Below are positions 4,908 to 61,693 of a stretch of DNA of 64,000 bases, piece after piece. This DNA comes from a virus. Lineage: Duplodnaviria > Caudoviricetes. The translations under genes and the position numbers were made by a program. The stretch is taken from IMG/VR virus record IMGVR_UViG_3300028603_000018, positions 160,001 to 224,000 of that record. One strand, 5' to 3'. Below the pieces are notes generated by a model. That model was not told the DNA's origin, ran no database searches, and saw nothing but the letters and a program-made list of their open reading frames with translations. The first letter of the stretch is position 1. Each line of letters opens with the position of its first letter.

Positions 4908-6815
4908 ATGAGTCAACAAGATTCTGTTCGCTGGGGTAATACGCCTGAGTCTAACCGGCCTTCTGCAGCAGGTCAGGAAACAAATGAGAAAGTTCTCGCT
5001 AGTGATCAACTCGGACAAGAGCGTTACAATCCAGACGAACTGGGTGTTGGTATCTTTGGCGCAGGAATGCAGATGTCGTTCAACTCTGGTTCGGAAATTC
5101 TCTTCCGTGCCAAAGAAGCACTCGATGCCCAGGTTAAGAAAGCCTCTGAGCAACTGCGTCGTGAAAATCAGATCAAACTAACCATTCTAGACCGTAGTGA
5201 GCATAAACGCCTTCCTTACAGCGCTCTGGTTCTTTCCCTGACCAATCCGCTGGTAGCTAAAGGTACATCGTTCTTCGTCTTCGTTATTGCTGGTGATCAA
5301 GGTGCGATCGTCCGTAATGAAATTCTACCTAATAACCAAGGTCAGTGCGAAACGCTTTCCTTACCTGCTGATGCACTGAACCAAGTCATCAAAGAAGCAG
5401 GAGAAATCCTACGTGGTTTGAATCCTGGTGTAACAGATCTCTTCTCGGCTTCGGGTATTGTTGTAACGAACGACACTTTCTCTTGGGATAGTGAAAAAGA
5501 CGTTTATCAACTCCTGGCCCGTGGTTATAACTCTTGCCTAGCTGTACTTTCTAGTAAAGGTCCTCGTTGGGATGATGTTAACTTGGCAAAGGTAATGGGT
5601 TCAGAACTGGAAGTTGTTCTGCAACGCACTCGTGGCCAAGCTCAACCGCGTGACGTACTGGGGCGTCCGAAGCGTCGTGATCTGGAAGTGTCTCTGCGCA
5701 CTCGTCAGGTTATGAGTCCTCAAACAGGTGATATCATCCATAAAGCAGAAACGATTGCTAGTCTGTCTGTTTATGGTGATCTGCTTTGGGGTCCGGAGAC
5801 GGTTCAAAAAGTAAACCAGTTTGGACAACCTGTTGTCGAGACCAAAACCTATAAGCAGCGCGTTATCATCACCCAGATGCGTAACCACCAAGCTTATACG
5901 TTGGGTTCGCAGCTAATGTCCTTTATCCCAGCCATTGCTCTGTTCCAGCCAAAAGCAACTCACCAAGCTTTTATCCCATCACCTGATTCTTCGATGGGTA
6001 AGTCTGATGACGTTGGTGTTCTGCAACTGGAGGCTAAGTACCATCAAGGCAATATGAGCGGTCAAGAAGCTGCTCAGCGTGTGGATGTCTTTAATAGCCC
6101 GCCTACCCTGATCAGTGACTACCTGGAGAAAATCCTCTCTGACAATATTGAAGTCGCACTTGATATTGAAGTCGGTGGTGAGGACTACCTGCATAATTCA
6201 GTACTGCTCAAAGCAGCACTGTCTGGTAGCGGTGCTTCGGGTAATAAAGACCACGATCGTGCATATACTAAACTCGTTGAAACCATGACGGTTCTAACTA
6301 ATGGTAAGTTTGCTGATTTCTGGCAAACTGGTGCACCTATTGCATTCGTAGATTCAGTTCGTGAAGTAGGTCATTTCACCAACGATGATGGTAACCTGGA
6401 AGATACTCGTCATGTGGATACTATTTCCACGATGAATAAGTTTATCGAAAACAATCCGGATTACTATCGTGTTTGGTCTGATGCTCAAGTAGCAACTAAC
6501 CGCACAATGCAAGCTCGTATGCGCGACATGCGTAACGTAACTGAGTACATGATCTCGCCTCCGACTTACACGACTCGTGTATTCCGTGTGATCCTGTCCG
6601 CAGCCTTCGTTAAAGCATATTTCGATTCCATCTCAGCTCTGGGTATTCGTCTTAACCTGGTTCTGCCTAATGAGACTCGTACTGAAGATCGTACGGGTTA
6701 TGTGAGTACTTCTAGCTCTATTCAAATGGGTGTGGGTGCAGGTATGCTCAATACCTTTGGTGGTAGCGTTGCTGGTACAATGTCACCTTCCAACTTCCAA
6801 CGTTGGTCTGCGTAA
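4908..6815 (+). CDS. chmA: Chimallin, major phage nuclear shell protein
   Basis: 635 aa (known chimallins are ~630 aa), codon usage typical of a highly expressed gene (CTG, CGT, GGT), immediately upstream of the nvRNAP beta' N-terminal gene as for phiKZ gp54/gp55; G/S-rich flexible C-terminal tail. Confidence 0.8.
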   Translation: MSQQDSVRWGNTPESNRPSAAGQETNEKVLASDQLGQERYNPDELGVGIFGAGMQMSFNSGSEILFRAKEALDAQVKKASEQLRRENQIKLTILDRSEHKRLPYSALVLSLTNPLVAKGTSFFVFVIAGDQGAIVRNEILPNNQGQCETLSLPADALNQVIKEAGEILRGLNPGVTDLFSASGIVVTNDTFSWDSEKDVYQLLARGYNSCLAVLSSKGPRWDDVNLAKVMGSELEVVLQRTRGQAQPRDVLGRPKRRDLEVSLRTRQVMSPQTGDIIHKAETIASLSVYGDLLWGPETVQKVNQFGQPVVETKTYKQRVIITQMRNHQAYTLGSQLMSFIPAIALFQPKATHQAFIPSPDSSMGKSDDVGVLQLEAKYHQGNMSGQEAAQRVDVFNSPPTLISDYLEKILSDNIEVALDIEVGGEDYLHNSVLLKAALSGSGASGNKDHDRAYTKLVETMTVLTNGKFADFWQTGAPIAFVDSVREVGHFTNDDGNLEDTRHVDTISTMNKFIENNPDYYRVWSDAQVATNRTMQARMRDMRNVTEYMISPPTYTTRVFRVILSAAFVKAYFDSISALGIRLNLVLPNETRTEDRTGYVSTSSSIQMGVGAGMLNTFGGSVAGTMSPSNFQRWSA

Positions 6816-44420: not shown

Positions 44421-46979
44421 ATGTCTACTTTTGCTTTTCAAGTAGGTGAGCCTGTAGAATCTCCTGACAGTCTCTTAAAACAAACGGATTTATTCGAAGA
44501 AGATACTTTAGTAGCAGGTGAAGTGCCTGAGCTAAATAAAGATACTACCTTTACTGCTATTTTAAATGAAACGATGGAGTCTTTAGACAAGGCTATTTCA
44601 TTTAAAAAGAAGATTAAAGAAACAGGCTTAGTTTCTCGTGCAATGGCTATGGAAGCTGTTGATGAGATTGAAGGCTTAGAATTGCTTCCTTTAGGTTATT
44701 ACACTGAGAAACCTACTGCTTCCTTAGGTGAACCTACTGTAGAGAACTTAACTGCTTATATCAATGTAGCTTGGAAACGAGCTAAAGAATTTATCATTAA
44801 GGCTTTTGAAGCTATTCAGAAGTTTATTAAAGATGCAGTAGAGAAAATCTCTATCTACTTAAAACATATTCACAATAACAAAACCATTAAAGCTTTAGAA
44901 AAGGTTACTCTACCTAACTCTATTAGCATTGCTCAAGCGGATAAAGTATTATCGTTACTAGACAGTGATCCTGGATATGGTAATCTTTTTATTGATGATG
45001 CTGCTGGAGAACGTCGTAAAGGTTATTTAAGTACCTTTATGAAAGACCCCACTTCCGTTAGTAAATCTTTATTTGATATCTTTCGTGATCCACGTATTCG
45101 TTCTATTTATGAGTTAATTCAGAATGAAGATACTTTAATTAAATCGATGAAAGATGGATCATTGGACATCACAGCTACATTAGAGACTTTAAAAGAAGTC
45201 AATGCAAGCTTTACTCCTAGTAAAGGTGGTAGGGGGGCTGATGCATTTTCTTTCTCTATTAATCCTTCTAGCCTAATTAAAGAGTTAGAAGCTTATCGTA
45301 AGAATCGTCTTAATTCTGAGAAATCGACTTTCAATACGAATGCGACCTTAGATAAATTAAGTGCTGTCTCTAAAGCTACAGCTAGTATTTCCCGTCTTAA
45401 TCCTACTCGTATTGCTGATAAGATGTTAAAAGATGTGAGTGGGGATGATGAACTTAAAGCTAAAACTTATCATGAAATTGTTGAGGATGTCTCAGCTCTA
45501 AATGAGTTCTTCACCTTCATCCTAACTATCGAAAAGAAATACGTTGAGTATGTAGCTACATTACAAACACTGGATGTACTCTACTTAAAAGTGGTTGGAG
45601 TATTAAAAGAAGGTGAAGCTTCCCAAGAAAGTATTGTTGAAGATACGTCTTTTGATTTTAGTCAACTCTCTCGTGAACTGAGCTTTTCTTTAGAAGCAAT
45701 TGATACTAAAGCGTTTGATAAGAGTAAAGCTGTTGATATTAATCTAAAAGAAACAAAAGTCTCTGAACAGCTTATTGCGGTATTTAATAGAATTAAAGCT
45801 TGGTTTGAAGAGATGCTTAGTCGTCTAGTTGAATGGTTAAGGAAAGTCAAAGCTAATTTATTACCTAGGATTAATAACCATATTCAATATCTTCAAACAG
45901 CTAAGTATGAAGAAGCATTAAAAGACCTCCAAGCACTTCGCCGTGATGAAAAGTCATTAGAGGATGTACTGAAAACAAAATTTAGGTATGGTGTTGGTAG
46001 CTTCAGATTTGAAGAGTTTGCTAATATTATTATTGAAGACTCTAAGTCTGGTAATCGTGACTTTAGCCAGCAGTTAGGTGTCTTATCAAGTAAGTCTTCT
46101 GAACTTCGTCGATTCTTAAGTTCTGTAAAAGATGCTCTGAAAGGTATGTCTGTTTCTAGAAAAGCAGGAAGTACGGACGTAAACAAAGCACTTGATGCAC
46201 TTAAAGGTATTGAAGGTGCTGGTATTATTAAAGACATCGACTTTAATATCAATGCTCTATATACTCGAATTAGAGATTCTAAAGACGGCGTAGGTGAAAA
46301 TAAAAATACCGCAGTTCCTTTAGATCCTAGGGAATTTTTGCAGACTGCTGGTGCTACGCTTACACATTTCAGTAAAAATAAAAACGACTTAAAGAATATC
46401 CAGTCTAGTGCTAATGCGATTGCTCTAGAGTTAGAGCGAGTTAACTTTGGTGATATCATGGTTGGAATTCATAGAAATATTTTTCTTACCGAAGGCTCAA
46501 CACATGGTCCTAACTATGAGGTAGATGATAGTGTAGGAGAAATTGCATATGAATATGTTAGTGAATTTAAGAAAGGAATTACTTTACTTTCTGAATTCTT
46601 AGGGAATCTAAAGACTTTACTTATGACCGCTAACTATTACGTTTTATACTCTTATCAGTTAGTTAGCTTATACATTAAAATCATCTCAGCAGCTAAAAAC
46701 TTGTCTATGAGGGTTGCTAACCGTAGTTCGTTTGAAGCACTAGAGATTACTTTAGAGTTCTTAAGTGATCCTAATGTGTTAGGTCCTACTGAAGACGAAG
46801 TTAAGTTTCAACAACTGCTAGATAATGAAAGTAATGCTTCTCTAGAGAATGATGAAGAACTTTCTTATATGAGTAATGTGTCAAGTTCAGGTGAGGAAGA
46901 TGTAGGGCTAGATGAGTTAGTCGATGCAGAAGAAGGCGTTGATGAAAATCTAAGCTATATGTCTAATACTTCTGAATAA
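44421..46979 (+). CDS. Internal head protein with two tandem modules
   Basis: 852 aa; AME, SQE, SLE, SFE, ALE sites; two amphipathic W-containing helices typical of head paralogues. Confidence 0.7.
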   Translation: MSTFAFQVGEPVESPDSLLKQTDLFEEDTLVAGEVPELNKDTTFTAILNETMESLDKAISFKKKIKETGLVSRAMAMEAVDEIEGLELLPLGYYTEKPTASLGEPTVENLTAYINVAWKRAKEFIIKAFEAIQKFIKDAVEKISIYLKHIHNNKTIKALEKVTLPNSISIAQADKVLSLLDSDPGYGNLFIDDAAGERRKGYLSTFMKDPTSVSKSLFDIFRDPRIRSIYELIQNEDTLIKSMKDGSLDITATLETLKEVNASFTPSKGGRGADAFSFSINPSSLIKELEAYRKNRLNSEKSTFNTNATLDKLSAVSKATASISRLNPTRIADKMLKDVSGDDELKAKTYHEIVEDVSALNEFFTFILTIEKKYVEYVATLQTLDVLYLKVVGVLKEGEASQESIVEDTSFDFSQLSRELSFSLEAIDTKAFDKSKAVDINLKETKVSEQLIAVFNRIKAWFEEMLSRLVEWLRKVKANLLPRINNHIQYLQTAKYEEALKDLQALRRDEKSLEDVLKTKFRYGVGSFRFEEFANIIIEDSKSGNRDFSQQLGVLSSKSSELRRFLSSVKDALKGMSVSRKAGSTDVNKALDALKGIEGAGIIKDIDFNINALYTRIRDSKDGVGENKNTAVPLDPREFLQTAGATLTHFSKNKNDLKNIQSSANAIALELERVNFGDIMVGIHRNIFLTEGSTHGPNYEVDDSVGEIAYEYVSEFKKGITLLSEFLGNLKTLLMTANYYVLYSYQLVSLYIKIISAAKNLSMRVANRSSFEALEITLEFLSDPNVLGPTEDEVKFQQLLDNESNASLENDEELSYMSNVSSSGEEDVGLDELVDAEEGVDENLSYMSNTSE

Positions 46980-49489: not shown

Positions 49490-52414
49490 TTAGACTAGTT
49501 TATGACGAATAAAGTTAACACTAACGTCTTCCTCAACAATAAGAATACCATCAGCACGAGCTACTAAACGTTTTCTTAAAGAGAGTCGGTCTGTTAAGTT
49601 AATAATAGTTACCATAGGAAAATCATTACTCCAACCGCCTAAACCAGTGATCTTAACATCCATAACATCATTACCATACAATGCTTTTAATTCAACAATC
49701 ATATCACTAATAGAAACAACAGCATTTGTTAAGTAATCATTAAGTGCTTGAATAGTCACTCTAGTTAACTGTTGTTTTAGTGCTTCATCATCATCGACTT
49801 TATCAGAGATGTGTAACTCTACATTAAAAGCTTGTTGAGCAGGTAAACTCGTTGTTAAACCAGCTCCATACATGATCTCAACAGGACCTGTAGTTGTCTT
49901 CGGATAAAAGAAGATTTTAGTCTTCTCTAATAAAGTAGGTGTTAATGATTTAATATCATTAATAATCCAATTGATAATTAAATCAACTAACTCTTTACGA
50001 TAATCAATAATGATCTTATCTGTACTAAAGAAGTACACACCATCGACCATCATAAAATCCACTTGTCTATAAACACGACGAGGTGAAATAACAACAGGTT
50101 CTCCAGTTACTTCATCAATAACTGTACTACCTGCTAAATGTCGATAAATAGGATTTCCTTGACCATCTAATTGAGGATCTCCCTTATGATGAAGAATGTT
50201 AAAATAAGGTTTACCGTCGTTATCGAATAATATATTCGTTCCATCAGGCCCTTTTTCATAAACATCCTCTAAGTAATAAGCAGGGACATCAAAAGGATAA
50301 GTCTCATAGCGTTCAGTACCTGGAATAGTTCTAGCTCTAATCCATAATTCTTTTAATGCATCACCAAACTTTAGACGAATCTTCTCAACACTGATAGCGG
50401 CAATACGATTAGGTAATAAGAACTTACCTAAATAGCTATCAGCTTCATTAGTCCTCCATTGAGAACCTAATGTCGCACTTGTTGAGAAAGTAATAACAAA
50501 ATCATTAAGTAGAGCAGTCTCAGTTAAACGAGGTGTTTGCTCAAACATAAAGAATTCTGTTAGCTCTAACCCATCTCTTCGTGTAACGTTAAAGTTAGAG
50601 GATAAATCAAATCGATAAACTCTTGAACCTTCATCTGTCTTACCAATTAACTCACCATTTTGATAAGCATAAGAAATCTCACCAATAGGTCTAAAAGAAA
50701 TCTGAGCATGAACTTCATTATCATTAAGAAGTTTTAAATCATCAGTTTCAGTAGTAGTGACTTCTAATTGATATCCAGAACTAGTCTTTAAGAACCGATA
50801 AGAAGAAATGGTAGAAGAAAGTAAAGTAAGGTCATTCTCAGCAATGAAAGATTTACTTTGAGCCTCAGGAGCATCTAATCGATACACTCGTGCATCAAAC
50901 TCAGACTCCAGCATTTCCATAACGTAATAGAAAGGTGTATAGAAGTAATTACCACCCGTTACTTGAGAAGCTTGTTGGTCTATAGGGAGAGCTTTAATTG
51001 CATCGATATTACTCTTAGGAACTAGATATGTCCTACCATTTCTATTTTGAAATAAAGTCTCTGGAGTAAAAGTAATACTTTCCCCATTATCAATAACTGT
51101 TCCAATATCAATAGCATCAATAGCATTAAAGAGAACAGATTGAATAGATAAACTAGCTGCTGTAATTAATTGATTATTAGTTGGATCAGGTAATTGTTTA
51201 GTAGCTAGATAAATTCGATTAGTGATATTATCTACGTTCTTTACAATATCAAAATCTTGATCTGCTAAAATAGTCTCAATCTGATCAGGCGTAATAGCAG
51301 GAACTCTAGGACCCATCGTATTGTAAATAACACGCCGTCTTAGTTCTTCTAAGTCTAAACTATTTCTGCCGCCATTGATAGTATCATTAGACCATACTTG
51401 GACATCTTCTAAATGAGAGAGGTTCTTTGTATAGACACTCTGACCAATATTATCAATAGTAGACCAGCTAAAATTAAAAGCAGTAGAATTTAAGTTAGCT
51501 AGATCAAGACTAACATGTCCTTTAGTCGTATAGACATCAATTCTTACTTTACCTACTAAATTAAACCTATTGATGTAGATAATAGGAATATGGACTTGTA
51601 CACTTTGTTCTAAGACTTTTACAGCAGCTGTAATAGTATCAGGGTTATAGACTAAGTCAGTGTGAGTAACTGCGATTTCTTCCCAGAGATCGGTATTACC
51701 TACAGTTTCCGATCTAGAGATATAAACTCTTACGAAATAAAAGTCATCTTGAAAGTTAACAGTAGTAAATAAAGGAGAGGTGGGACTAAAATCGGCTTTT
51801 TGTGAAGTGATCTCATATTGGAAAGTATCAAACTCCATAACAAACCAATCTGTATTATCTAAAGTGATAATATTAAAAGGAATTAAGTTTGTCTCAACAT
51901 CACCAATAGGACTACCTTCATTAACATCCCATACAACAGTTAATCCACCATGATTCATCTCCCTGATCTCAATGGGATAAATAGTACTGAATACTAAATC
52001 CCCTGGACCAAATCGACTATTACGAGGAATAACAATTTTCTTGTATCCTCTATCTGGTACAGCTACTAAGTTATTAATTAAATCATCATAATGGATCTTT
52101 AATTGAAACTTAGCCTTAGAGGGTAGAGCAAAGCGACCAATATAGTCCTGATCACTCATATGTAAATATAAGTCATCAGCTTGTCTTGCATTAACAGGAT
52201 AGAGCTTACGATAAGAACTCTCAAACCCATTTAAAAGAGAACTAATTCCACTAGCACTTACTTCTTGTAATTGCACCATCGGGTTAGAAGGATCGTATAC
52301 GTTTAATTCTCCTCCATTAATTTCCCGTAGTAGTCGTAAATTAATTCTTTGAATTGCTGAAGGATTATTAATAACCCTTTTTAATGCTTCTTTATAAGCA
52401 GTAACTTGACTCAT
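49490..52414 (-). CDS. Virion structural protein, probable baseplate wedge (phiKZ gp87-like)
   Basis: 974 aa; GG..LDLEELRRRV...AITPDQI resembles baseplate J/gp6 motifs; synteny. Confidence 0.7.
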   Translation of the reverse strand: MSQVTAYKEALKRVINNPSAIQRINLRLLREINGGELNVYDPSNPMVQLQEVSASGISSLLNGFESSYRKLYPVNARQADDLYLHMSDQDYIGRFALPSKAKFQLKIHYDDLINNLVAVPDRGYKKIVIPRNSRFGPGDLVFSTIYPIEIREMNHGGLTVVWDVNEGSPIGDVETNLIPFNIITLDNTDWFVMEFDTFQYEITSQKADFSPTSPLFTTVNFQDDFYFVRVYISRSETVGNTDLWEEIAVTHTDLVYNPDTITAAVKVLEQSVQVHIPIIYINRFNLVGKVRIDVYTTKGHVSLDLANLNSTAFNFSWSTIDNIGQSVYTKNLSHLEDVQVWSNDTINGGRNSLDLEELRRRVIYNTMGPRVPAITPDQIETILADQDFDIVKNVDNITNRIYLATKQLPDPTNNQLITAASLSIQSVLFNAIDAIDIGTVIDNGESITFTPETLFQNRNGRTYLVPKSNIDAIKALPIDQQASQVTGGNYFYTPFYYVMEMLESEFDARVYRLDAPEAQSKSFIAENDLTLLSSTISSYRFLKTSSGYQLEVTTTETDDLKLLNDNEVHAQISFRPIGEISYAYQNGELIGKTDEGSRVYRFDLSSNFNVTRRDGLELTEFFMFEQTPRLTETALLNDFVITFSTSATLGSQWRTNEADSYLGKFLLPNRIAAISVEKIRLKFGDALKELWIRARTIPGTERYETYPFDVPAYYLEDVYEKGPDGTNILFDNDGKPYFNILHHKGDPQLDGQGNPIYRHLAGSTVIDEVTGEPVVISPRRVYRQVDFMMVDGVYFFSTDKIIIDYRKELVDLIINWIINDIKSLTPTLLEKTKIFFYPKTTTGPVEIMYGAGLTTSLPAQQAFNVELHISDKVDDDEALKQQLTRVTIQALNDYLTNAVVSISDMIVELKALYGNDVMDVKITGLGGWSNDFPMVTIINLTDRLSLRKRLVARADGILIVEEDVSVNFIRHKLV

Positions 52415-52426
52415 TTTCCTTTATTC

Positions 52427-53515
52427 CTAAATATTATCCCAGTATGCTTCGCCAGCAGGATCAACTTCTCTTGCTAAGTCCCTAGGGATAACAGCATAGA
52501 AAAGACGTTTATCAACCCACCACTCAAAACTACCATCAGCAGGATTGATACGAGGATAACCATATCCATTTAATAAGTTTAATGCCCAATCTGGAATAGT
52601 TCTAAATACCTGTTCTCGACGATCATCTCGCATTGCACTATTAAAGAAGATAACTGTCGCATTGAACTCATCAAATAAAATAGGATCATTATAAGTTAGA
52701 CCATTTGTCCTGAATGTGATATTGATCATATCGTTTTCTCGACTAAATGGTTGTCCTACTTCAAAGTTACCTCGCTGACCCATAGGTGATGATAACGGGA
52801 AAGCAGCATCAGCACTTAAGATACTCCTGACCATTCTTTTATTCTGATCTAAAGTAACACGATAGATACGAGTCATGTAGTCAATTTCATGCTCCCACCA
52901 GTATAATGGATAAGGAACTAATCGATCCTCAAAGACTAGCATCGCATACAAAATCCAGTAATAAAAGAGGTCAGTAATTGGGTCACCTAATATATTTCTA
53001 AAGGTACAGTTTATATCGTATGTTCCATTGAGGTTTAAAGGACCGTCAATAAAACTAAAAGCTTCCTTATACTGTCCTTCAGGAGAAGTGTAAGTAGGTG
53101 CTACTGCATCAGGCCATCCAGATGAACTTTGTATAAAATTAGTTAAGATAGGGATGAATGCTTGATAGTTATCTAGTAAAGGACAATCCACATTACTAGA
53201 GATTAAATTATTATCAAAAACAGTTCTGATATATCTAGAATAACTAGTGGGTTCTTTGGTAAGCAATAGAGATAATCGTCTATCGATTCTTAAATTCTCC
53301 ATTGTCATATTCATCAGTGGACGAGTAAAGAAGGTATAACCAATTTGGTCCTTATTCATTGGAATAAGACCAGGCTGCTGACGATGGTTTATACCAAAGA
53401 AGGCTCGCGCTGCTCCACTTGATATATTACCTATTGCAGTATTACTGGTAACTCTTTCAATAGCTTCTTTACTTTTTCTTTGGTTATGCCAATATAAATC
53501 TTCATTTGTTGCCAT
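52427..53515 (-). CDS. Virion structural protein, tail-tube/baseplate-hub-like (phiKZ gp88-like)
   Basis: 362 aa with GYTFFTRP and SSSGWPD motifs; synteny. Confidence 0.65.
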   Translation of the reverse strand: MATNEDLYWHNQRKSKEAIERVTSNTAIGNISSGAARAFFGINHRQQPGLIPMNKDQIGYTFFTRPLMNMTMENLRIDRRLSLLLTKEPTSYSRYIRTVFDNNLISSNVDCPLLDNYQAFIPILTNFIQSSSGWPDAVAPTYTSPEGQYKEAFSFIDGPLNLNGTYDINCTFRNILGDPITDLFYYWILYAMLVFEDRLVPYPLYWWEHEIDYMTRIYRVTLDQNKRMVRSILSADAAFPLSSPMGQRGNFEVGQPFSRENDMINITFRTNGLTYNDPILFDEFNATVIFFNSAMRDDRREQVFRTIPDWALNLLNGYGYPRINPADGSFEWWVDKRLFYAVIPRDLAREVDPAGEAYWDNI

Positions 53516-53587
53516 GGTTGTTAAAACCTCAATAACCTTTCTTTATTTTACTATAAGTTTATAAAACTTAAAAAAGGATTTTTTTGT

Positions 53588-54706
53588 ATGAAAGCCAATT
53601 TAGCTTTTTCACTGATTGGAGCAGCCGCAGTCGGATTAAGTAATCTTATTGCCGCAGCAGCTAAGCCACAAAGTTTAATGAAGCGGGCTGCTATAGCTCG
53701 GTTAGAACCTAATGCTATCATTGATGAGAGATGTTTACTGTATCCAAATTTAAACGATGTACTTAGCGTAACGACTAACGTATTCATCGCTACTTATCTG
53801 CAATTGATCTCTCTAAGCAGAACCACCAGTGATGGTACTCAAATCATTAAACGAGTCAGTCTACAGGATACGCGGTTAGGTGGTGAGAGTTACCTTTCTT
53901 CTATGCTTAGTATTGAGGCGGCAGAACAACCAAATGTCATTGGTATCCTAGATGAAATTACTGAGTTCAAAGATATTCATGAAGATGCATTACCAGCAGA
54001 AGACTACTACTCTCAAGAGAGTCAAGTAAACCGTAAACTCATCGAAGGTCTAAATGACAGTGGTTCATTAGCTGTTGGTCGATTCATTGAAGTAGAAATC
54101 GAAAAAGGTGCTGATGGAAAACCAGTTACTGTAGAGATTGCTGTTCGTATGATGTCAACCATTGCTAATACGAATATCTTAAAGAATGCTCTAGAATCTC
54201 GGTTCAAAGGTAATGAAGGTCCGCTTGAAAGAAAACATGGCTGGAAAACAGGTCGTCTTTCCTTTATCTCTGATTTAGTATTTGGAAGTGATTTAATTCG
54301 CAAGCATCGTAATCTTCAAATGAAAGATGTCGATGGTATCTATAGCAAGCTTAGTCCGAATAAGATGCGTGGTAAAACAGGATGGGATGTTGTAACAGGT
54401 AAGTTCTCTATTGCAGAAGCTTCTTCAGTACTTGTTTTAGATCAAGAAACAGTTGATGAAGTCGAATACGCTATGGGTGGTAAGTTTAGTAACAAAACCT
54501 TCCGTGATCGTCTCCTTGAAGCAACAGGTGTCATGACCTTAGCTATCATTGATAGGGGTGATGATATGGTTACGTTCTATTATGATTCTATTGCCGATGG
54601 CACTCGTTTGAACTCTGCTGCTCTTCGGTCAGCAGGTAAGAAAGACGGTCCTGATGTAGGTAAGATCCTAGAACAGTTTATTGCTCAAGGTCAAGTACGT
54701 TTTTAA
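53588..54706 (+). CDS. Internal head/inner-body protein (phiKZ gp89-like)
   Basis: 372 aa, internal SIE and SQE sites; divergent from the gp88-like gene. Confidence 0.65.
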   Translation: MKANLAFSLIGAAAVGLSNLIAAAAKPQSLMKRAAIARLEPNAIIDERCLLYPNLNDVLSVTTNVFIATYLQLISLSRTTSDGTQIIKRVSLQDTRLGGESYLSSMLSIEAAEQPNVIGILDEITEFKDIHEDALPAEDYYSQESQVNRKLIEGLNDSGSLAVGRFIEVEIEKGADGKPVTVEIAVRMMSTIANTNILKNALESRFKGNEGPLERKHGWKTGRLSFISDLVFGSDLIRKHRNLQMKDVDGIYSKLSPNKMRGKTGWDVVTGKFSIAEASSVLVLDQETVDEVEYAMGGKFSNKTFRDRLLEATGVMTLAIIDRGDDMVTFYYDSIADGTRLNSAALRSAGKKDGPDVGKILEQFIAQGQVRF

Positions 54707-54726
54707 TTGATAAAAAGGAATATTAG

Positions 54727-55638
54727 ATGGACCCCTTAGTTGCTTATAAAGAAAAGCTATTACCTATTCTGAAGAAGACGGATTTACTTGATGACGTAGA
54801 TCGTATCCGTACGGAATACACGAAATACCTTATTCCTGAATTAGAGCGTAATGCTACTGTTGTAAACAAACCTAAAGATAAAGATATCGAAAGAATGTTC
54901 GATACGATTCATCGAATTGGAAAGATCTCTCGTCGAGATAATGCTTTATCTGGTTTAAGTGAATCTTTTAAGAATACTGTAGAGAGCTTAGATAAAGTTC
55001 AAGACGTTATTAAAAAAGAATTTACTGGCGAACAAATTGCTACTGATGTATTGACTTATCGACAAGTTGCTTTAATCCGATATGTTGAGATCAGTAACTT
55101 TGTACTGAATTATTCATTACGTCTGTTACGGTTCATTTTATCAAAAGAACTCGATGCAGCTGGTCAAAAGGGTAATGATTCTATCACACCTAATGAACGG
55201 ACTAGTTTAAATAACAACTTCGTCAATTATGCTAGTGCATTACCAATCGTTACTTTAAACGCTAGTCAAATCGACAAGACATTAAAAGAAACGCCTTCTG
55301 TTGTGATTGATGAAGCAGCAAGTGATGTACTGTCTTTCCATACTGCTGGTAAAGCTGATCCAACTAAAGCTGGTTTAGTCGCTACTGATTGGAATCCTCT
55401 TTATCATTCTAATTGGAATCCTATCTATCGTACTCGTTTACTCATTGCTGAGTGGCAAGCTAAAGAATATAGGAAGATTGTAGAAGAACTTAAGATGTTT
55501 GAGGTTCAGCGTCTACGTATTGAGAATGCTCGTCAAGGTAGAGCTGATCCTATTTTAGATAAACGAGCAGAAGAGTTAGGTGGTATTATTAATGATCTCC
55601 AGTACGAGATCAATAGGATGGAGAAAAACTATGCTTAA
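54727..55638 (+). CDS. Internal head/inner-body protein (phiKZ gp90-like)
   Basis: 303 aa with WNPIY motif and C-terminal coiled coil; synteny. Confidence 0.65.
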   Translation: MDPLVAYKEKLLPILKKTDLLDDVDRIRTEYTKYLIPELERNATVVNKPKDKDIERMFDTIHRIGKISRRDNALSGLSESFKNTVESLDKVQDVIKKEFTGEQIATDVLTYRQVALIRYVEISNFVLNYSLRLLRFILSKELDAAGQKGNDSITPNERTSLNNNFVNYASALPIVTLNASQIDKTLKETPSVVIDEAASDVLSFHTAGKADPTKAGLVATDWNPLYHSNWNPIYRTRLLIAEWQAKEYRKIVEELKMFEVQRLRIENARQGRADPILDKRAEELGGIINDLQYEINRMEKNYA

Positions 55639-56266
55639 CTCCACTCGATCAGTTCAGGTTTATCCCAGAGGTTTTCTAGGTAAGCCTATTGACAGAGTAG
55701 AAGAAGCACCTAAGTTTGCGATGCGGAGTCCGAATTTAATGTTTGGATTTAGCTTGGTGTCAGGAATGAATGAGCGTCGTAAAGGTAGTCCTGAAGTGGA
55801 TGAACTCCATCAGCAATATTTAGGTAACCTTAAATATGCTACTAACTTCGATTGCTTTAAAGATCTACTTGTTGAATTCTTATCTGTCTTTACAACAAAT
55901 CAGTTTGGACAATGGTTATTCATGCAAAGAGAAAGTCCTGTATACACCCCTTTGCATGAGCGCTTTCTGATCGATACTTGTAACTATTTACTAACAGGTC
56001 AAAGAAAGCTGAGTGTTTATAATTGGGAAGGTATGTTTAAACATAACTACCAACCCGGTAGTGAGACCTATGGTGGTCGGCATACGGAGACAAACGTACC
56101 ATTAGAGCTAAATAAAACAGATCGCTTATTAGCAACTGATTTATTTAAACGTTTTGAAAATGCTTCTCTAGGTGATGTCTTTCAATACTGGGTGTCTAAA
56201 CCTAATGGCTTAGATGACTTAATGACTTCTCTGTTTATCTTCTTCGGTTCTAGTATTGATAATTAG
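55631..56266 (+). CDS. Virion protein (phiKZ gp91-like)
   Basis: ATG 55631 overlaps the upstream stop; VQVYPRGF motif; hairpin follows (56271-56301). Confidence 0.6.
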   Translation: MLNSTRSVQVYPRGFLGKPIDRVEEAPKFAMRSPNLMFGFSLVSGMNERRKGSPEVDELHQQYLGNLKYATNFDCFKDLLVEFLSVFTTNQFGQWLFMQRESPVYTPLHERFLIDTCNYLLTGQRKLSVYNWEGMFKHNYQPGSETYGGRHTETNVPLELNKTDRLLATDLFKRFENASLGDVFQYWVSKPNGLDDLMTSLFIFFGSSIDN

Positions 56267-56337
56267 TAATAGAGGGAATATGTTAAAAGCATATTCCCTC
56301 TTTTCGCTATTAAGTCAAGTCTTAAGGTTTTTATAAC

Positions 56338-57318
56338 ATGTCAACAAAAATTATAGATTTAATTAATGCAACTGACCCTGCTGACTTCCTAGGTAGAGCT
56401 AAGGAGGCATTACCTAATAGAATCTTTCCTTCTCAAGAATCTTTAGAAACTCAATCTTTCTTTAGCCAGATCTTCATGGATTCAATTAAAAAGGAAGCTT
56501 TTCTCTCCTTTTTAAAGTCATTAAGAAGTAAGGATATTAGTACTACATCCAACATTAAAAATAATATCGCTGAAATTAAAAAGAACATCTCTAAACTAAA
56601 AGCCTATCGAGAAAAGAATGCTTTTAGTCTCATGGATTATGAAGATATTGTTATTCCTTTAGAATACCTACAGACAGTTTTTGCTCCAGTAAGCCGATAT
56701 CCATTAATCGATGTCGTGACTAATACTCTATGTGTTATTGAATCCATCTCTTCTCTTTTCTCTAGAGAAGCAGTTCGTGGAAAAGAAGATGGTAAGTTCT
56801 ATCCAGTTAATTGTGATGATGTAACGACTTATTTACCTGTTAAGCAATTGATCGAACCAGTAGGTATTGAGAAGTGGAAAGAAGTCGGTATTGATACTGT
56901 TGCACTAGAAGATGCTTTTTGTAAATACATTGCTATTTGGACAAGTAATAGTGATGTGAATTTAACTATTGCTGAAAAAGTAATTGATGACTTAGAAGAC
57001 TTACCAGTTATTAGTACTTCTGATTGGTCTGATCTTGATACTCTTTTACGAGACAGTGAGCTTACAGATAAGCTAGACGCTCTTTTAGCGCAATTAGAAG
57101 AATACCTACAATCTAATTTTGATTGGATGGATGTTGTTACTAACGTATTAAATAGTACAGATGAGCAATCTAGTTTAGTTAATTTAGTTCGTATTACTGA
57201 TAGCTTATATCAAAACTGGAGAAATCTCCATTACTCTTTTGAAGGTTTAAGTACCTTACTAAGTTGTTTTATAACCGCGCTCGTGTATTGTACTGAACAG
57301 TTCAAAAAACCCGTTTAA
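56338..57318 (+). CDS. Putative head protein
   Basis: 326 aa with SQESLE site. Confidence 0.65.
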   Translation: MSTKIIDLINATDPADFLGRAKEALPNRIFPSQESLETQSFFSQIFMDSIKKEAFLSFLKSLRSKDISTTSNIKNNIAEIKKNISKLKAYREKNAFSLMDYEDIVIPLEYLQTVFAPVSRYPLIDVVTNTLCVIESISSLFSREAVRGKEDGKFYPVNCDDVTTYLPVKQLIEPVGIEKWKEVGIDTVALEDAFCKYIAIWTSNSDVNLTIAEKVIDDLEDLPVISTSDWSDLDTLLRDSELTDKLDALLAQLEEYLQSNFDWMDVVTNVLNSTDEQSSLVNLVRITDSLYQNWRNLHYSFEGLSTLLSCFITALVYCTEQFKKPV

Positions 57319-57343
57319 CTAAAAAGGAAATAGGTTAAGATCT

Positions 57344-59242
57344 ATGTCAGTAAAATTAGATGATTTACTGATGAAGTACTATGAAGGGGAGAATACGAGT
57401 TCTAGTACAACATCGAGTAATAGAGATTCCATTATTAATGCAGTTAATCAAAAAGGAGATAGTAATGCTATCGCTGAGCAAAATTCTGAACAAAGTAACA
57501 CTGGGTCTGTGGTCGGTGAACAAGGAAGCCTCGCCCCTTCAGAAAACCCAGGAGACGCAGAATCCGTTATCGACAACCTCATCGACGAAGAACAGCCTGG
57601 ATCTGGGTCGGGTACTGAACCCAGCGTTCCAAGCACCAGTGGCTCAACCGACAGTAGCGTCGGAACCGACATCCCAAGTGAAGACAGTGGAGAAGACAAT
57701 ACCGTCGGAGAAGGAGGAAGTCAGTCAGGAGAAGAAACTGGAAACAGTGATCAAGTCAGTAGTGGAGCAGGAGGCATCAGTCCCCCAGCCCCAGAAGGCA
57801 ACGAACAAGGATCTACTCCAGAAGAAGTTGGAAGTGATTCAGGAAGCAACTCCTACGAAGAAGACCACTCCGAAGAAGTCATCGTCAGCCAAGACGACTT
57901 CGAAGAAAGCTCCAGCGAAGAAAACAGCAGTCAAAGTAGCGACCAAGTCAGTGGCGAAGAAGGTAGTGAAGACTTCGACACCGAAGAAAGCGGTGAAGAA
58001 GACCTCAGTGAAAACAGTAGCGAAGTAAATGCTGTAGAAGAGGAAACTGAGCAAGCTATTGAGGAAGAAGTCATTGATGCTCAAGAAGTAGCGCAAGATG
58101 TCTTAGCTGAAGCAGGTGATCCTAGTGCTATTGAAGAAGAGGAAAGTCAAGTAGAAGAATCTGATACAGGGGAAGATTCTAAAGTAGCAGAAACCTCTGA
58201 AGAGATTCTTAATACGAAAGCTAATGATAATGATGTCGATAATCTAACAGGCTTACATAAAGACGCTGGGATTATTAAACGTGCCTATGAGCTAGATTCT
58301 AGAATTGGTGATTATGCTAGGATTATCTTAGACCGTTTTCCATCTGATACAAGTACTGAGAATGTAGATGAGTCTTTTCTCGTTATTAGTAGTATTACTT
58401 TAGAAACACTAAGTGATGCAGGTAAAGCACTAGTAGGTGATGAATTTGATATTGAACAAGATAACATTGTTCAAGAAGCTATTATTCAATCTAAAACTAA
58501 TCTACTACAATCATTAGACGATAGTATCGCAGTCTTAGCGACTTCTATTGATATTGGTAACAGAACATTAGAGAAGATTAAAAATAGCGCTTCACAATAC
58601 CAAAGTGCAGCAACAGAGATTACTTCTCCTCTAGCTCAAAAACTCGTCTCTCTTCTTGGAATACAGGGGGAGTTGGATGCTAATAAGCTAGCGTACTCAT
58701 CTGTTACTAATGGTGTGGTTGCCGATGTATTTTCTTGGATTAATAAAGATTATACAGTCATGCTTAAGAATCTAGAAACTGAAGGTGTAAGTAGTGTTGC
58801 TCCTCTGGTGCTAAATTCCTTACCTAAGTTTAATATGGCTGATGATTCTGACATCTTAGCTAGCTCAGAGCTACTTCCTGGTAATCGAGTTATTCAACAA
58901 ATTGGTAATAAGAGTAATAGTCAAGCAATTATAGATGTCCATAATGAAAGAAGGGATGCATCGTCTGTAACTGTACCAGGTCAATCTCAATTAGAAAGTA
59001 TTATTGCTGAAATTGGTGTTGTTACTCGTACAGCTACTATATTCTCTAATAAGCTCAATGGGTTTAAAGAATCTCTTGAGATCTTTTTTAACTGGTATGA
59101 AAAAGATAATACTGGTGAAGTAACGATTAATGGTAGTGGTAATTTAATCAATGCTGTTAGTTTCATTTTAGCTTTTAGTAATTACCTTTCTAATTACTTA
59201 CGTGGTTTATCTGCTTATGCTTTACTTCCTGTTGAAGTTTAA
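57344..59242 (+). CDS. Head protein with long acidic Ser/Gly/Glu propeptide
   Basis: 632 aa; C-terminal domain with LLPGNRV motif shared with the 59317 paralogue. Confidence 0.75.
   Translation: MSVKLDDLLMKYYEGENTSSSTTSSNRDSIINAVNQKGDSNAIAEQNSEQSNTGSVVGEQGSLAPSENPGDAESVIDNLIDEEQPGSGSGTEPSVPSTSGSTDSSVGTDIPSEDSGEDNTVGEGGSQSGEETGNSDQVSSGAGGISPPAPEGNEQGSTPEEVGSDSGSNSYEEDHSEEVIVSQDDFEESSSEENSSQSSDQVSGEEGSEDFDTEESGEEDLSENSSEVNAVEEETEQAIEEEVIDAQEVAQDVLAEAGDPSAIEEEESQVEESDTGEDSKVAETSEEILNTKANDNDVDNLTGLHKDAGIIKRAYELDSRIGDYARIILDRFPSDTSTENVDESFLVISSITLETLSDAGKALVGDEFDIEQDNIVQEAIIQSKTNLLQSLDDSIAVLATSIDIGNRTLEKIKNSASQYQSAATEITSPLAQKLVSLLGIQGELDANKLAYSSVTNGVVADVFSWINKDYTVMLKNLETEGVSSVAPLVLNSLPKFNMADDSDILASSELLPGNRVIQQIGNKSNSQAIIDVHNERRDASSVTVPGQSQLESIIAEIGVVTRTATIFSNKLNGFKESLEIFFNWYEKDNTGEVTINGSGNLINAVSFILAFSNYLSNYLRGLSAYALLPVEV
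57465..58028 (+). CDS. Overprinted (+1 frame) 187-aa protein with histone-H1-like Lys/Ala/Thr/Pro tail
   Basis: SD AAGGAG (57453-57458) 6 nt before ATG; last 59 aa contain 20 Lys and no acidic residue; host frame favours GTC/CTC/GAC/AGC codons across the overlap. Confidence 0.7.
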   Translation: MLSLSKILNKVTLGLWSVNKEASPLQKTQETQNPLSTTSSTKNSLDLGRVLNPAFQAPVAQPTVASEPTSQVKTVEKTIPSEKEEVSQEKKLETVIKSVVEQEASVPQPQKATNKDLLQKKLEVIQEATPTKKTTPKKSSSAKTTSKKAPAKKTAVKVATKSVAKKVVKTSTPKKAVKKTSVKTVAK

Positions 59243-59316
59243 GTGATAGATGTTTTAATAGTCTCAGTAGTCTTATATTTACTGCTGAGACTACTTCTTC
59301 TTAATTATGCTGAAAA

Positions 59317-60504
59317 ATGAATAATGTAGATCTCACCCAACTGAGCTTAGAAGCTATCGAAGTTTCATTAGAAGCATTATCTAAACTTCAAGCTATCAAT
59401 AACAACCTATCTAATCAGCAAGATGAGGTACTTAACACTTCTACCCGGTTTGCTTTAGAGACAATTAAGCAAGTGTATGATTTACCTGACGATATTCTTT
59501 CGTTAGAAGATAGTAATGATTTACATACAGCTTCTAAAAACGCTATAACGAGAATTTGGGAACTTATTCTTAAATGGCTCGCAGCTATTGCTAAAGAAAT
59601 TAATGAGAAGTGGCATAACCTAGGTATGTCATTAGTAATGGCTGATGAATTATTAAAAAACGCTGATAGTCGTTTTAGAGCAGCTAAGCAAAGTAGACTT
59701 TTTAGAAAGGTCCCTGTAGGCGGAATAAGAAGTCGTAATATTGCTAATGCTTTAAACGTTGATAATGATGTTAGTTTTAATAAGATCACTCAAGGAATCT
59801 CAAGACTCACTACGACTTTTGGTTCTATAGATAATTTTGTTGATACTGAATTAATTAAACTTCGTAGCTTTAAGTCCAGTATCTTAAATAAAGACAAGAT
59901 TGATATTCCAGAATTACCTCTACCTAATCAGATCGATGTACAAGTAGCTCGTAATGAGTTAGTTAATTATTCTTTAGATGATCGTTATGAAGCTAAGCGA
60001 TCTGTAACTTTACCAGGTAATAGAGTTTACCTCCACGTTAAATATAAGAACGGTTTAACGTTAGGAGAAGTAAGGGATAGTACTAGTAATGTTTTAGCTA
60101 AACCTTACTCTGATAAGAAGTACGGTATTCATTTATCTAAAAAGAAAACAGATACTACTGTTGCTTTCACAATCAAGCCATTTAACGAACACGAAATCTT
60201 ACGTTTATTAACCTTAGCTCGTTCTTTATCTAACGAATTAAAAAGCGCTAACAACAATCATAGTAAGATTAAATCGACGTTATCTGATCTTCAACAAGTT
60301 TTTAAAGATCAAAGTAAACAGACTAATGCTAGTGTTGTTGAATTAAATCAAATAAAGGATTATGTAGTAGGTATTGCTAATAACTTATCTGAAATTAGTT
60401 TAGATAGTAGAATTTACTTAGTGGGAGTTATTACTCAGCTCTCTCAATTAATATCCTTACAAGTATCCTTATACGAAGGAAAGATAGAAGGTGAGTATGA
60501 TTAA
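59317..60504 (+). CDS. Internal head protein (phiKZ gp93-family-like)
   Basis: Repeated SLE/ALE sites, IWELILKWL helix, TLPGNRV motif. Confidence 0.7.
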   Translation: MNNVDLTQLSLEAIEVSLEALSKLQAINNNLSNQQDEVLNTSTRFALETIKQVYDLPDDILSLEDSNDLHTASKNAITRIWELILKWLAAIAKEINEKWHNLGMSLVMADELLKNADSRFRAAKQSRLFRKVPVGGIRSRNIANALNVDNDVSFNKITQGISRLTTTFGSIDNFVDTELIKLRSFKSSILNKDKIDIPELPLPNQIDVQVARNELVNYSLDDRYEAKRSVTLPGNRVYLHVKYKNGLTLGEVRDSTSNVLAKPYSDKKYGIHLSKKKTDTTVAFTIKPFNEHEILRLLTLARSLSNELKSANNNHSKIKSTLSDLQQVFKDQSKQTNASVVELNQIKDYVVGIANNLSEISLDSRIYLVGVITQLSQLISLQVSLYEGKIEGEYD

Positions 60505-61693
60505 GTCATTAAGCAATCCTCAAGTTCTTAAAAAGCGTCCTAAAGCTGATACAAGCGCTCCTATTGACACAACGACTCAAAGTGGGTTAGCTGTACTAGA
60601 GGACGTTTTAAACTTCACCACGACCCGTTTAGAGAAGGCTGAGCACTTAGATAAAGCAGAGACCTTTATGGCAGCTCACGCTCAAGAAGAACCTGGTGAT
60701 GGTAAAGTTAAACTCGCTGAAATTACTATCGAGACATTAAGAGAAGAACTCATCGAGAGTTTAGAAGATTGTGACGAATGTAATTCATTAAGTACAGGGT
60801 TAGAGAACTTAACGACTAATGAACTCATTGGTCAAACTCTAGTGGTATCGAAGAACATCTTAACTGATGTTTCTAATATGCTATATAAAGCTAGTAATGA
60901 TCTAGTTATTAGTAAAGAGCTAATTCAAGACAGACTCTCTACTTTACTTGAGAAAGTAACACATTTAAAAGACGTAGTTAAGTTACCTGATGGTCAACAC
61001 CCTTCTACTAAGGTCGATATCAATAAAGCTAAAGCATTATTATATCTAACTGACACTCATGCTAAACCCTCTCTCATTATTTGCTTAGCAGGTGAGATAT
61101 GGAAGCAAAGTTATTATAATACCATTCTTCCTTTAATGGAAAGTAATGAACAAAAATTATCTGACTTAAAAGAATTGCTAAAAGAAGCAATTAAAGATAA
61201 GATGGAGGATGGTTCATTCATCTCTTTAGAAGGTATTGAAACTGATGAACATACTGTGTTAATTAGTCAGTTAACTAAGGGTGATTTTATTGCTTTTGAT
61301 AAAAGAGATAATCGATTCTTGATTTTAGAGAAAGGAGTTAATTTCTTAGACGGTGAAGTTACTCTACCTACACTAACAACTGAAGAGATTTTTAAGAGTT
61401 TAAATCTCATTAAGAAGTCTTTAATAGACTCTTGTGTAGGTGAGATTTTAAATGAGACTTCTAACATCCAGCGTAAAGTATTTGAACTACATGCCTTATT
61501 AATGTCTTATTTTACTGGCGTCACTTCGAAGAATTATATCGAAGAAGGAGAATTAAGACTCATTATTGAGGAAGTCAAAAACTATAGAGAAGTGTTAAAT
61601 AACAATGTTATCTTCTATTATCAATACGCTAATAAATTAGTTAATAACATTATTCTTATGTTAGATGTTCTGGAATCATACTTAGAAGGTTAG
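60491..61693 (+). CDS. Internal head protein paralogue
   Basis: 400 aa with SLE and GLE sites. Confidence 0.65.
   Translation: MSMIKSLSNPQVLKKRPKADTSAPIDTTTQSGLAVLEDVLNFTTTRLEKAEHLDKAETFMAAHAQEEPGDGKVKLAEITIETLREELIESLEDCDECNSLSTGLENLTTNELIGQTLVVSKNILTDVSNMLYKASNDLVISKELIQDRLSTLLEKVTHLKDVVKLPDGQHPSTKVDINKAKALLYLTDTHAKPSLIICLAGEIWKQSYYNTILPLMESNEQKLSDLKELLKEAIKDKMEDGSFISLEGIETDEHTVLISQLTKGDFIAFDKRDNRFLILEKGVNFLDGEVTLPTLTTEEIFKSLNLIKKSLIDSCVGEILNETSNIQRKVFELHALLMSYFTGVTSKNYIEEGELRLIIEEVKNYREVLNNNVIFYYQYANKLVNNIILMLDVLESYLEG

Follow-up and report, generated by a model that had tools for sequence, protein, structure and literature searches.

A nested reading frame in the acidic extension of a jumbo-phage gene

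The window analysed here, a stretch of 64,000 nucleotides (nt), comprises bases 160001-224000 of a 244-kilobase (kb) jumbo-phage contig of 36% GC (IMG/VR record IMGVR_UViG_3300028603_000018). Its plus strand carries an open reading frame (ORF) for a 632-amino acid (aa) protein at 57344..59242, hereafter the host gene, which we defined by the ORF, its homologues (P0002, P0003 and P0007) and gene order. The host protein is composed of a conserved 45-aa N-terminus, an acidic disordered extension and a conserved C-terminal domain (C-domain; 58196..59239, plus strand), the latter with 32-34% identity to three relatives. Entirely within the acidic extension, on the same strand and in the +1 frame, comparative sequence analysis points to a second gene (57465..58028) that overlaps the host gene over ~560 bases and would encode a largely disordered 187-aa protein with an isoelectric point (pI) of 10.1 and a net charge of +21. 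We consider it likely, with a probability of roughly 0.8, that 57465-58028 is a genuine, unannotated, overprinted protein-coding gene.

An initial annotation of this DNA had noted a +1 ORF with its own Shine-Dalgarno (SD) sequence and ATG inside the acidic region, and all of these signals could be located. The ATG is at 57465, preceded at a distance of 6 nt by the SD sequence AAAGGAG (57452..57458, plus strand), which is formed by the host codons AAA GGA G, and the TAA stop (58026..58028, plus strand) is formed by the host codons GAA GTA A. The +1 frame stays open for 217 codons (57375 to 58028), 187 of them from the ATG at 57465 onwards. No other same-strand alternative frame in the 244-kb phage is as long, the runner-up having fewer than 110 codons. 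The predicted product begins with an amphipathic helix (residues 1-18; 57465..57518, plus strand) with the pattern M-[LI]-x-L-S-x-[LI]-L, its best-conserved part as judged from the alignment, and ends with a 59-aa tail rich in Lys, Ala, Thr, Pro, Ser and Val that contains two TPKK motifs (57849..58025, plus strand). Our count for the tail, 20 lysines with no Asp or Glu, is the same as that given initially. Past the overlap, a remaining acidic stretch of the host gene (58029..58195, plus strand) has normal codon usage and +1 stops, and serves as an internal control.

Codon usage, conservation and substitutions across the overlap

The host frame had been described as using C-ending codons (GTC, CTC, GAC, AGC and TCC) across the overlap and as reverting to GTA at the +1 stop, and our codon counts agree. 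Compared with the rest of the phage, the host-frame share in the overlap is 78% vs 20% for GAC, 54% vs 15% for GTC, 3/3 vs 9% for CTC, 24% vs 8% for AGC and 10% vs 5% for TCC; GGA (59% vs 23%) and ATC (75% vs 30%) also are elevated, and T occupies 26% of host third positions vs 51%. NTA occurs once among the host codons of the overlap, as the GTA that forms the +1 stop, and GTA, GAT and GCT reappear immediately after it. The GC content reaches 55% in the overlap compared to ~33% in the surroundings, and the synonymous-codon score of the overlap is lower than that of all 289 equal-length windows taken from other genes. The direction of the shift, with A and C more frequent and T and G less frequent at host position 3 (+1 position 2), follows from the composition of the +1 protein, which is rich in Lys, Thr, Pro, Ala, Ser and Gln, poor in Arg and Gly, and non-hydrophobic.

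The lysine richness of the +1 frame is automatic, given that GAA read one base later is AAG. This favours an explanation in which the +1 frame is a by-product, open and lysine-rich merely as a result of an acidic, GAA-rich, low-complexity host stretch poor in Val, Leu and Ile, and without a functional product. The synonymous shuffling put forward as a check in the initial annotation bears directly on this explanation. With the host protein fixed and codons drawn according to phage usage, an open +1 frame of at least 217 codons was obtained in 0.075% of 4000 trials (mean 84 codons), whereas permutation of the overlap's own codons gave such a frame in 14%. The +1 frame thus is open because of the odd host codon usage, and it is this codon usage that needs a cause. 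In the reverse test, where the +1 protein was fixed and genome codon usage applied, ~19 stops are expected in the host frame (minimum 8 in 5000 trials) and 0 are observed, indicating that both frames are held open. We also considered the possibility that the basic frame alone is real and the acidic frame an artefact; this was rejected given the conserved 45-aa host N-terminus, the lack of a start codon after the +1 stop, and the number of host stops expected if the frame were unselected.

For comparisons between phages, an exhaustive HMMER search with the host C-domain identified two remote clusters of 33-34% identity and a metagenome scan added a third lineage, giving four lineages: the window, L003 (also represented by the near-identical variants L007 and L008), L004 and L005. 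Searches of 50,697 phage records by blastn and tblastn, with the host gene, the C-domain and two +1 proteins as queries, found nothing, and the IMG/VR and GTDB genome contigs yielded no more relatives beyond these lineages. The contigs concerned come from samples ERZ27247346, SRR31646604, SRR19018932, SRR27999826 and JGI 3300017553. All three relatives are syntenic with the window locus, and all three keep the SD and a stop-free nested ORF, as the initial annotation had suggested might be seen in homologues: 206 aa in L003 (5146-5766), 187 aa in L004 (5140-5703) and 202 aa in L005 (3119-3727). Their products are 29-35% identical to the window +1 protein, with M1, L4, S5, L8 and L15 invariant in the alignment and, in all four lineages, a K/A/T/P-rich tail with a net charge of +15 to +20 over the last 60 residues.

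The signals that delimit the ORF likewise are conserved. AAAGGAG is located 6-9 nt before the +1 ATG in 4/4 lineages. This sequence requires GGA, which makes up only 0.23, 0.10, 0.14 and 0.04 of the Gly codons in the background of the four phages. The TAA is derived from host GAA-GTA-A in 4/4 lineages, and in each overlap this GTA is the sole NTA host codon. Both sense frames are stop-free over the overlap in six sequences from the four lineages, compared to 7-16 stops in the third frame.

Alternatively, ribosomes translating the host frame might enter the basic sequence through a programmed +1 frameshift, fusing the host N-terminus to the basic tail. In the window and L003, the +1 frame is already open close to the host start, and an upstream SD-like element can stimulate +1 shifting, as for prfB, so these features fit a frameshift. 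However, +1 stops are found 6 codons (L004) and 2 codons (L005) upstream of the conserved ATG and, therefore, the ORF begins at this ATG, favouring internal initiation over frameshifting. In addition, no slippery or stop-codon shift site is seen in the sequence, and the 6-9-nt spacing between SD and ATG is that required for initiation. We regard a frameshift as very unlikely.

A within-gene comparison is possible in all four phages, as the acidic host segment continues past the +1 stop for a further 55-140 codons of similar composition. Third-position C drops from 0.34-0.43 in the overlap to 0.05-0.19 after it, and third-position T rises from 0.16-0.22 to 0.36-0.41. With the four phages pooled, the GAC/GAT counts change from 50/21 within the overlaps to 13/41 downstream of them (P = 3e-7), and the post-overlap acidic stretches contain 5, 3, 5 and 2 +1 stops. 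For the window control alone (55 codons), third-position C is 0.05, T is 0.36, GAC/GAT is 0/5 and five +1 stops are present.

Substitutions provide a further test of the two frames. Where L004 and L005, whose host C-domains are 68% identical, share a host residue, its codon differs between them in 30% of cases within the overlap vs 53% elsewhere (P = 1.3e-4), and divergence at codon positions 1/2/3 is even in the overlap (0.39/0.37/0.42) and 0.30/0.19/0.58 in the C-domain. Among L003, L007 and L008, polymorphic sites are distributed 9/4/2 over host codon positions 1/2/3 in the overlap and 2/3/40 outside it (P = 6e-7); the difference also is detected when only the neighbouring acidic stretch serves as reference (2/3/14, P = 9e-4), and the C-domain substitutions are exclusively at third positions. 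The changes in the overlap of these variants mostly alter the host protein (Ser/Gly, Thr/Ala) and are silent in the +1 frame, where they correspond to third positions. A total of 11 host residues vary compared to 5 +1 residues, all of the latter in the last 46 residues of the K-rich tail, with the first 160 invariant. These patterns show purifying selection on the nested frame, which at present is the more constrained of the two, and indicate that both reading frames are maintained by selection.

A similar substitution pattern could be produced by another constraint on host third positions, either an in-phase antisense gene or an RNA-level requirement for A/C-rich, T/G-poor sequence. The wobble position of an in-phase antisense frame corresponds to host position 1, and such a frame runs without a stop over 237 codons in L004 and 142 in L003. 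However, TCA codons interrupt it in each of the four lineages (4 in the window, 2 in L003, 1 in L004 and 3 in L005), and two of the L003 position-1 polymorphisms are outside the L003 antisense ORF. No RNA-level model of this type predicts a conserved ATG, SD and stop. We regard this alternative as very unlikely, and reject an antisense gene as the source of the constraint. Minus-strand open frames over the overlap (57448-58096, 85 aa, in the window; 5154-5867, 237 aa, in L004) appear to be by-products of a T-poor sense strand. Antisense open frames of 191 and 164 codons also are found inside the plus-strand genes at 44421-46979 and from 61833 onwards.

Several observations weigh against the nested frame being a gene with a function. 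By itself, the open frame is only marginally unusual in the higher-GC relatives (P = 0.02-0.06). The strict signal AAGGAG-N5-9-ATG also occurs 11 times before ORFs of <50 codons in this phage and, therefore, the SD is evidence solely through its conservation. Independent comparisons are few, with four lineages in total, of which L004 and L005 are fairly close. A word-index search of 5.8 billion proteins, carried out with the +1 alignment and with the non-lysine part of one +1 protein, gave zero matches and thus no stand-alone homologue, and AlphaFold predicts no fold and no winged-helix globular domain for the nested protein. Since the protein is of low complexity and lacks both a homologue and a fold, its function has to be deduced from context and composition.

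The chance openness of the frame, in the relatives and in the 14% of permutations, and the lack of a homologue or fold also are in line with the by-product explanation. This explanation nevertheless does not account for a codon shift confined to the +1 ORF even though the acidic stretch goes on beyond it, for a rare GGA retained in the SD across four lineages, or for recent substitutions that shun host third positions and land on +1 third positions, and we consider it improbable. The initial annotation had proposed that a single stretch encodes a polyanion and a polycation by way of a real +1 ORF. The ORF, SD, ATG and stop conserved in 4/4 lineages, the switch in codon usage at the ORF borders and the substitution pattern strongly support this core proposal.

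The host gene and its neighbourhood

The host gene is part of a gene block (49490-61693) collinear with phiKZ gp87-gp95, in the order tail-tube-like gp88, gp89, gp90, gp91 domain and then internal head protein paralogues. phiKZ gp87, gp88 and gp89 match at the expected places with 33%, 33% and 23% identity, and the locus is flanked by a PhiKZ_gp91 domain gene and phiKZ_IP genes. Given this collinearity, 57344-59242 occupies the position of phiKZ gp93, a major inner-body protein. No direct sequence match was found between the host gene and phiKZ gp92-94, and the 632-aa host protein has no match in Pfam, PF12699 included, or in PHROGs. In a profile-profile comparison (hhalign), the host C-domain matched the neighbouring phiKZ_IP paralogues with 79% probability (E 1.6e-5, 297 columns), and the gene directly downstream of the host gene matches PF12699 at 32.8 bits. 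At the gp92-gp94 positions, divergence of the inner-body genes is too great for tblastn to detect them.

Proteins of this group have long N-terminal propeptides that are cut after Glu (PMC5694885). The position and the profile match make the earlier assignment of the acidic region to a head-protein propeptide plausible, with a putative internal head (inner-body) protein and a predicted cleavage. Counterparts of the host gene product may be phiKZ gp93 and SPN3US gp53/gp54, inner-body or ejection proteins in which the N-terminal propeptides are long; its gene is at the gp93 position, and its C-domain has the remote profile match to the neighbouring paralogues. Compared with phiKZ, the new clade stands apart by its acidic extension of 190-300 aa and by the nested gene; no +1 open frame of >57 codons is present in phiKZ gp89-gp97.

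Two versions of the host protein are found in public protein sets, one of 632 aa (start at 57344) and one of 623 aa (start at 57371, Met10). The host N-terminus is conserved across the relatives (LDDL..., RD[DS]I[LI]NAV), and these conserved N-termini favour the longer 632-aa form. A tblastn search of the phage contig for phiKZ chimallin (gp54) gave no match. The remaining 108 contigs of the same assembly have a GC content of 61%, compared to 36% for the 244-kb phage contig, and the bacterium represented by that assembly may be other than the host of the phage.

The nested product and its proposed role

The four nested proteins have pIs of 10.1-10.6 and net charges of +21 to +29, with 33-35 Lys and 1-4 Arg, and the overlapped host segments have net charges of -36 to -50 (-50 for the window). 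For the nested protein, AlphaFold predicts a helix at residues 4-18 (predicted local distance difference test score, pLDDT, ~76), two weak helices and disorder for the rest, with a mean pLDDT of 53. The four proteins matched no Pfam family at E values up to 1, including H1/H5 (PF00538) and Hc1 (PF07432), the nested protein has no family in PHROGs, and its look-alikes in the ESM Atlas have scores of 0.82-0.84, in the noise range.

The initial annotation had called the nested protein histone-H1-like, which is appropriate for its composition and S/TPKK-type motifs but, given no match to H1, Hc1 or another family, denotes composition and not descent. Like the H1 C-terminal domain and chlamydial Hc1 (PF07432), the nested protein has a pI >10 and a disordered tail that is rich in K/A/P/T/S, lacks acidic residues and contains S/TPKK-type motifs; it differs in having no family match or winged-helix domain and in being overprinted rather than stand-alone. 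Stand-alone H1-like PF07432 genes have been reported in the 'moraphages', a group of large aquatic phages, for which genome compaction has been proposed (PMC12619734). Neither histone-like proteins nor overlapping genes are mentioned in a 2026 review of jumbo phages (PMC13282480).

We propose that ribosomes start on the nested gene internally, at a strong binding site of its own in which AAAGGAG is followed by 6 nt and ATG. The segment read in the host frame would be disordered and polyanionic (net -50). The 187-aa product of the nested frame would be a polycation (net +21) that starts with a short amphipathic helix, continues as a polar linker and finishes with a lysine-rich tail resembling the H1 C-terminal domain. 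The nested gene most likely arose through overprinting, as a GAA/GAC-rich acidic stretch already is AAG-rich in the +1 frame.

Two features of the nested protein are of interest with respect to head maturation. First, its N-terminus (M-[LI]-x-L-S-x-[LI]-L) is similar to the leaders of phiKZ gp93 and gp94, which we take as a weak lead; phiKZ gp93 is cut at SLE-13 (PMC5694885). Second, the four nested proteins contain 2 prohead-protease motifs ([SAG]-x-E) compared to 9.1 in shuffles (P = 0.0014, in a test that is generous as composition varies along the protein), and the overlapping acidic host segments have 6-16 such sites. A role as a virion-internal, DNA-binding, charge-neutralising protein is possible, and we put it forward tentatively based on the late head/inner-body operon, the leader-like N-terminus and the few [SAG]-x-E motifs. 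Such a role would be comparable to that of T4 IPI, IPII and IPIII, small basic proteins that are made together with head proteins, carry a short N-terminal targeting peptide, are packed in the capsid with DNA and are injected (PMC5694885). The T4 internal proteins have no homology to the nested protein and are encoded by ordinary stand-alone genes. Alternatively, the nested protein might act on DNA in the infected cell.

A more specific and rather doubtful scenario would assign a role to the polyanionic propeptide as well. As a stand-in for DNA, it could recruit and hold the polycation in the prohead, or keep the cytoplasm safe from it. The protease then would cut the 6-16 [SAG]-x-E sites, and the resistant polycation would pass to the incoming DNA, condensing it around the inner body or coating it for injection. 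If this were true, one stretch would encode a DNA-condensing protein together with its charge-matched chaperone, with their amounts coupled via shared transcription.

The closest parallels in gene arrangement are lambda Rz/Rz1 and T7 18.5/18.7, where an inner gene with a start of its own likewise lies in the +1 frame of a same-strand gene that encloses it completely. Both proteins are produced there, and automated annotation routinely overlooks the inner gene. Rz1 differs in being a lipoprotein of ~60 aa that acts in lysis by binding the protein encoded by the enclosing gene. The gene described here is three times longer (187-206 codons), is located in a predicted head gene and sets a polycation opposite a polyanion. 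Standard gene callers overlooked the nested protein in every record, in keeping with the 0 matches among the 5.8 billion predicted proteins. In phages and bacteria, long same-strand overlaps are seldom found and often met with doubt, and the visibly tighter constraint on the nested frame would make this an unusually clean case. The arrangement suggests a simple route for gene birth, in which a GAA-rich, acidic, disordered segment hides a K-rich frame that the gain of a ribosome-binding site can turn into a gene. For jumbo phages, an unannotated, conserved protein that is H1-like by composition would join the inner-body block, as a candidate for condensing or protecting the ~250 kb of DNA that is arranged around the inner body and delivered into the cell.

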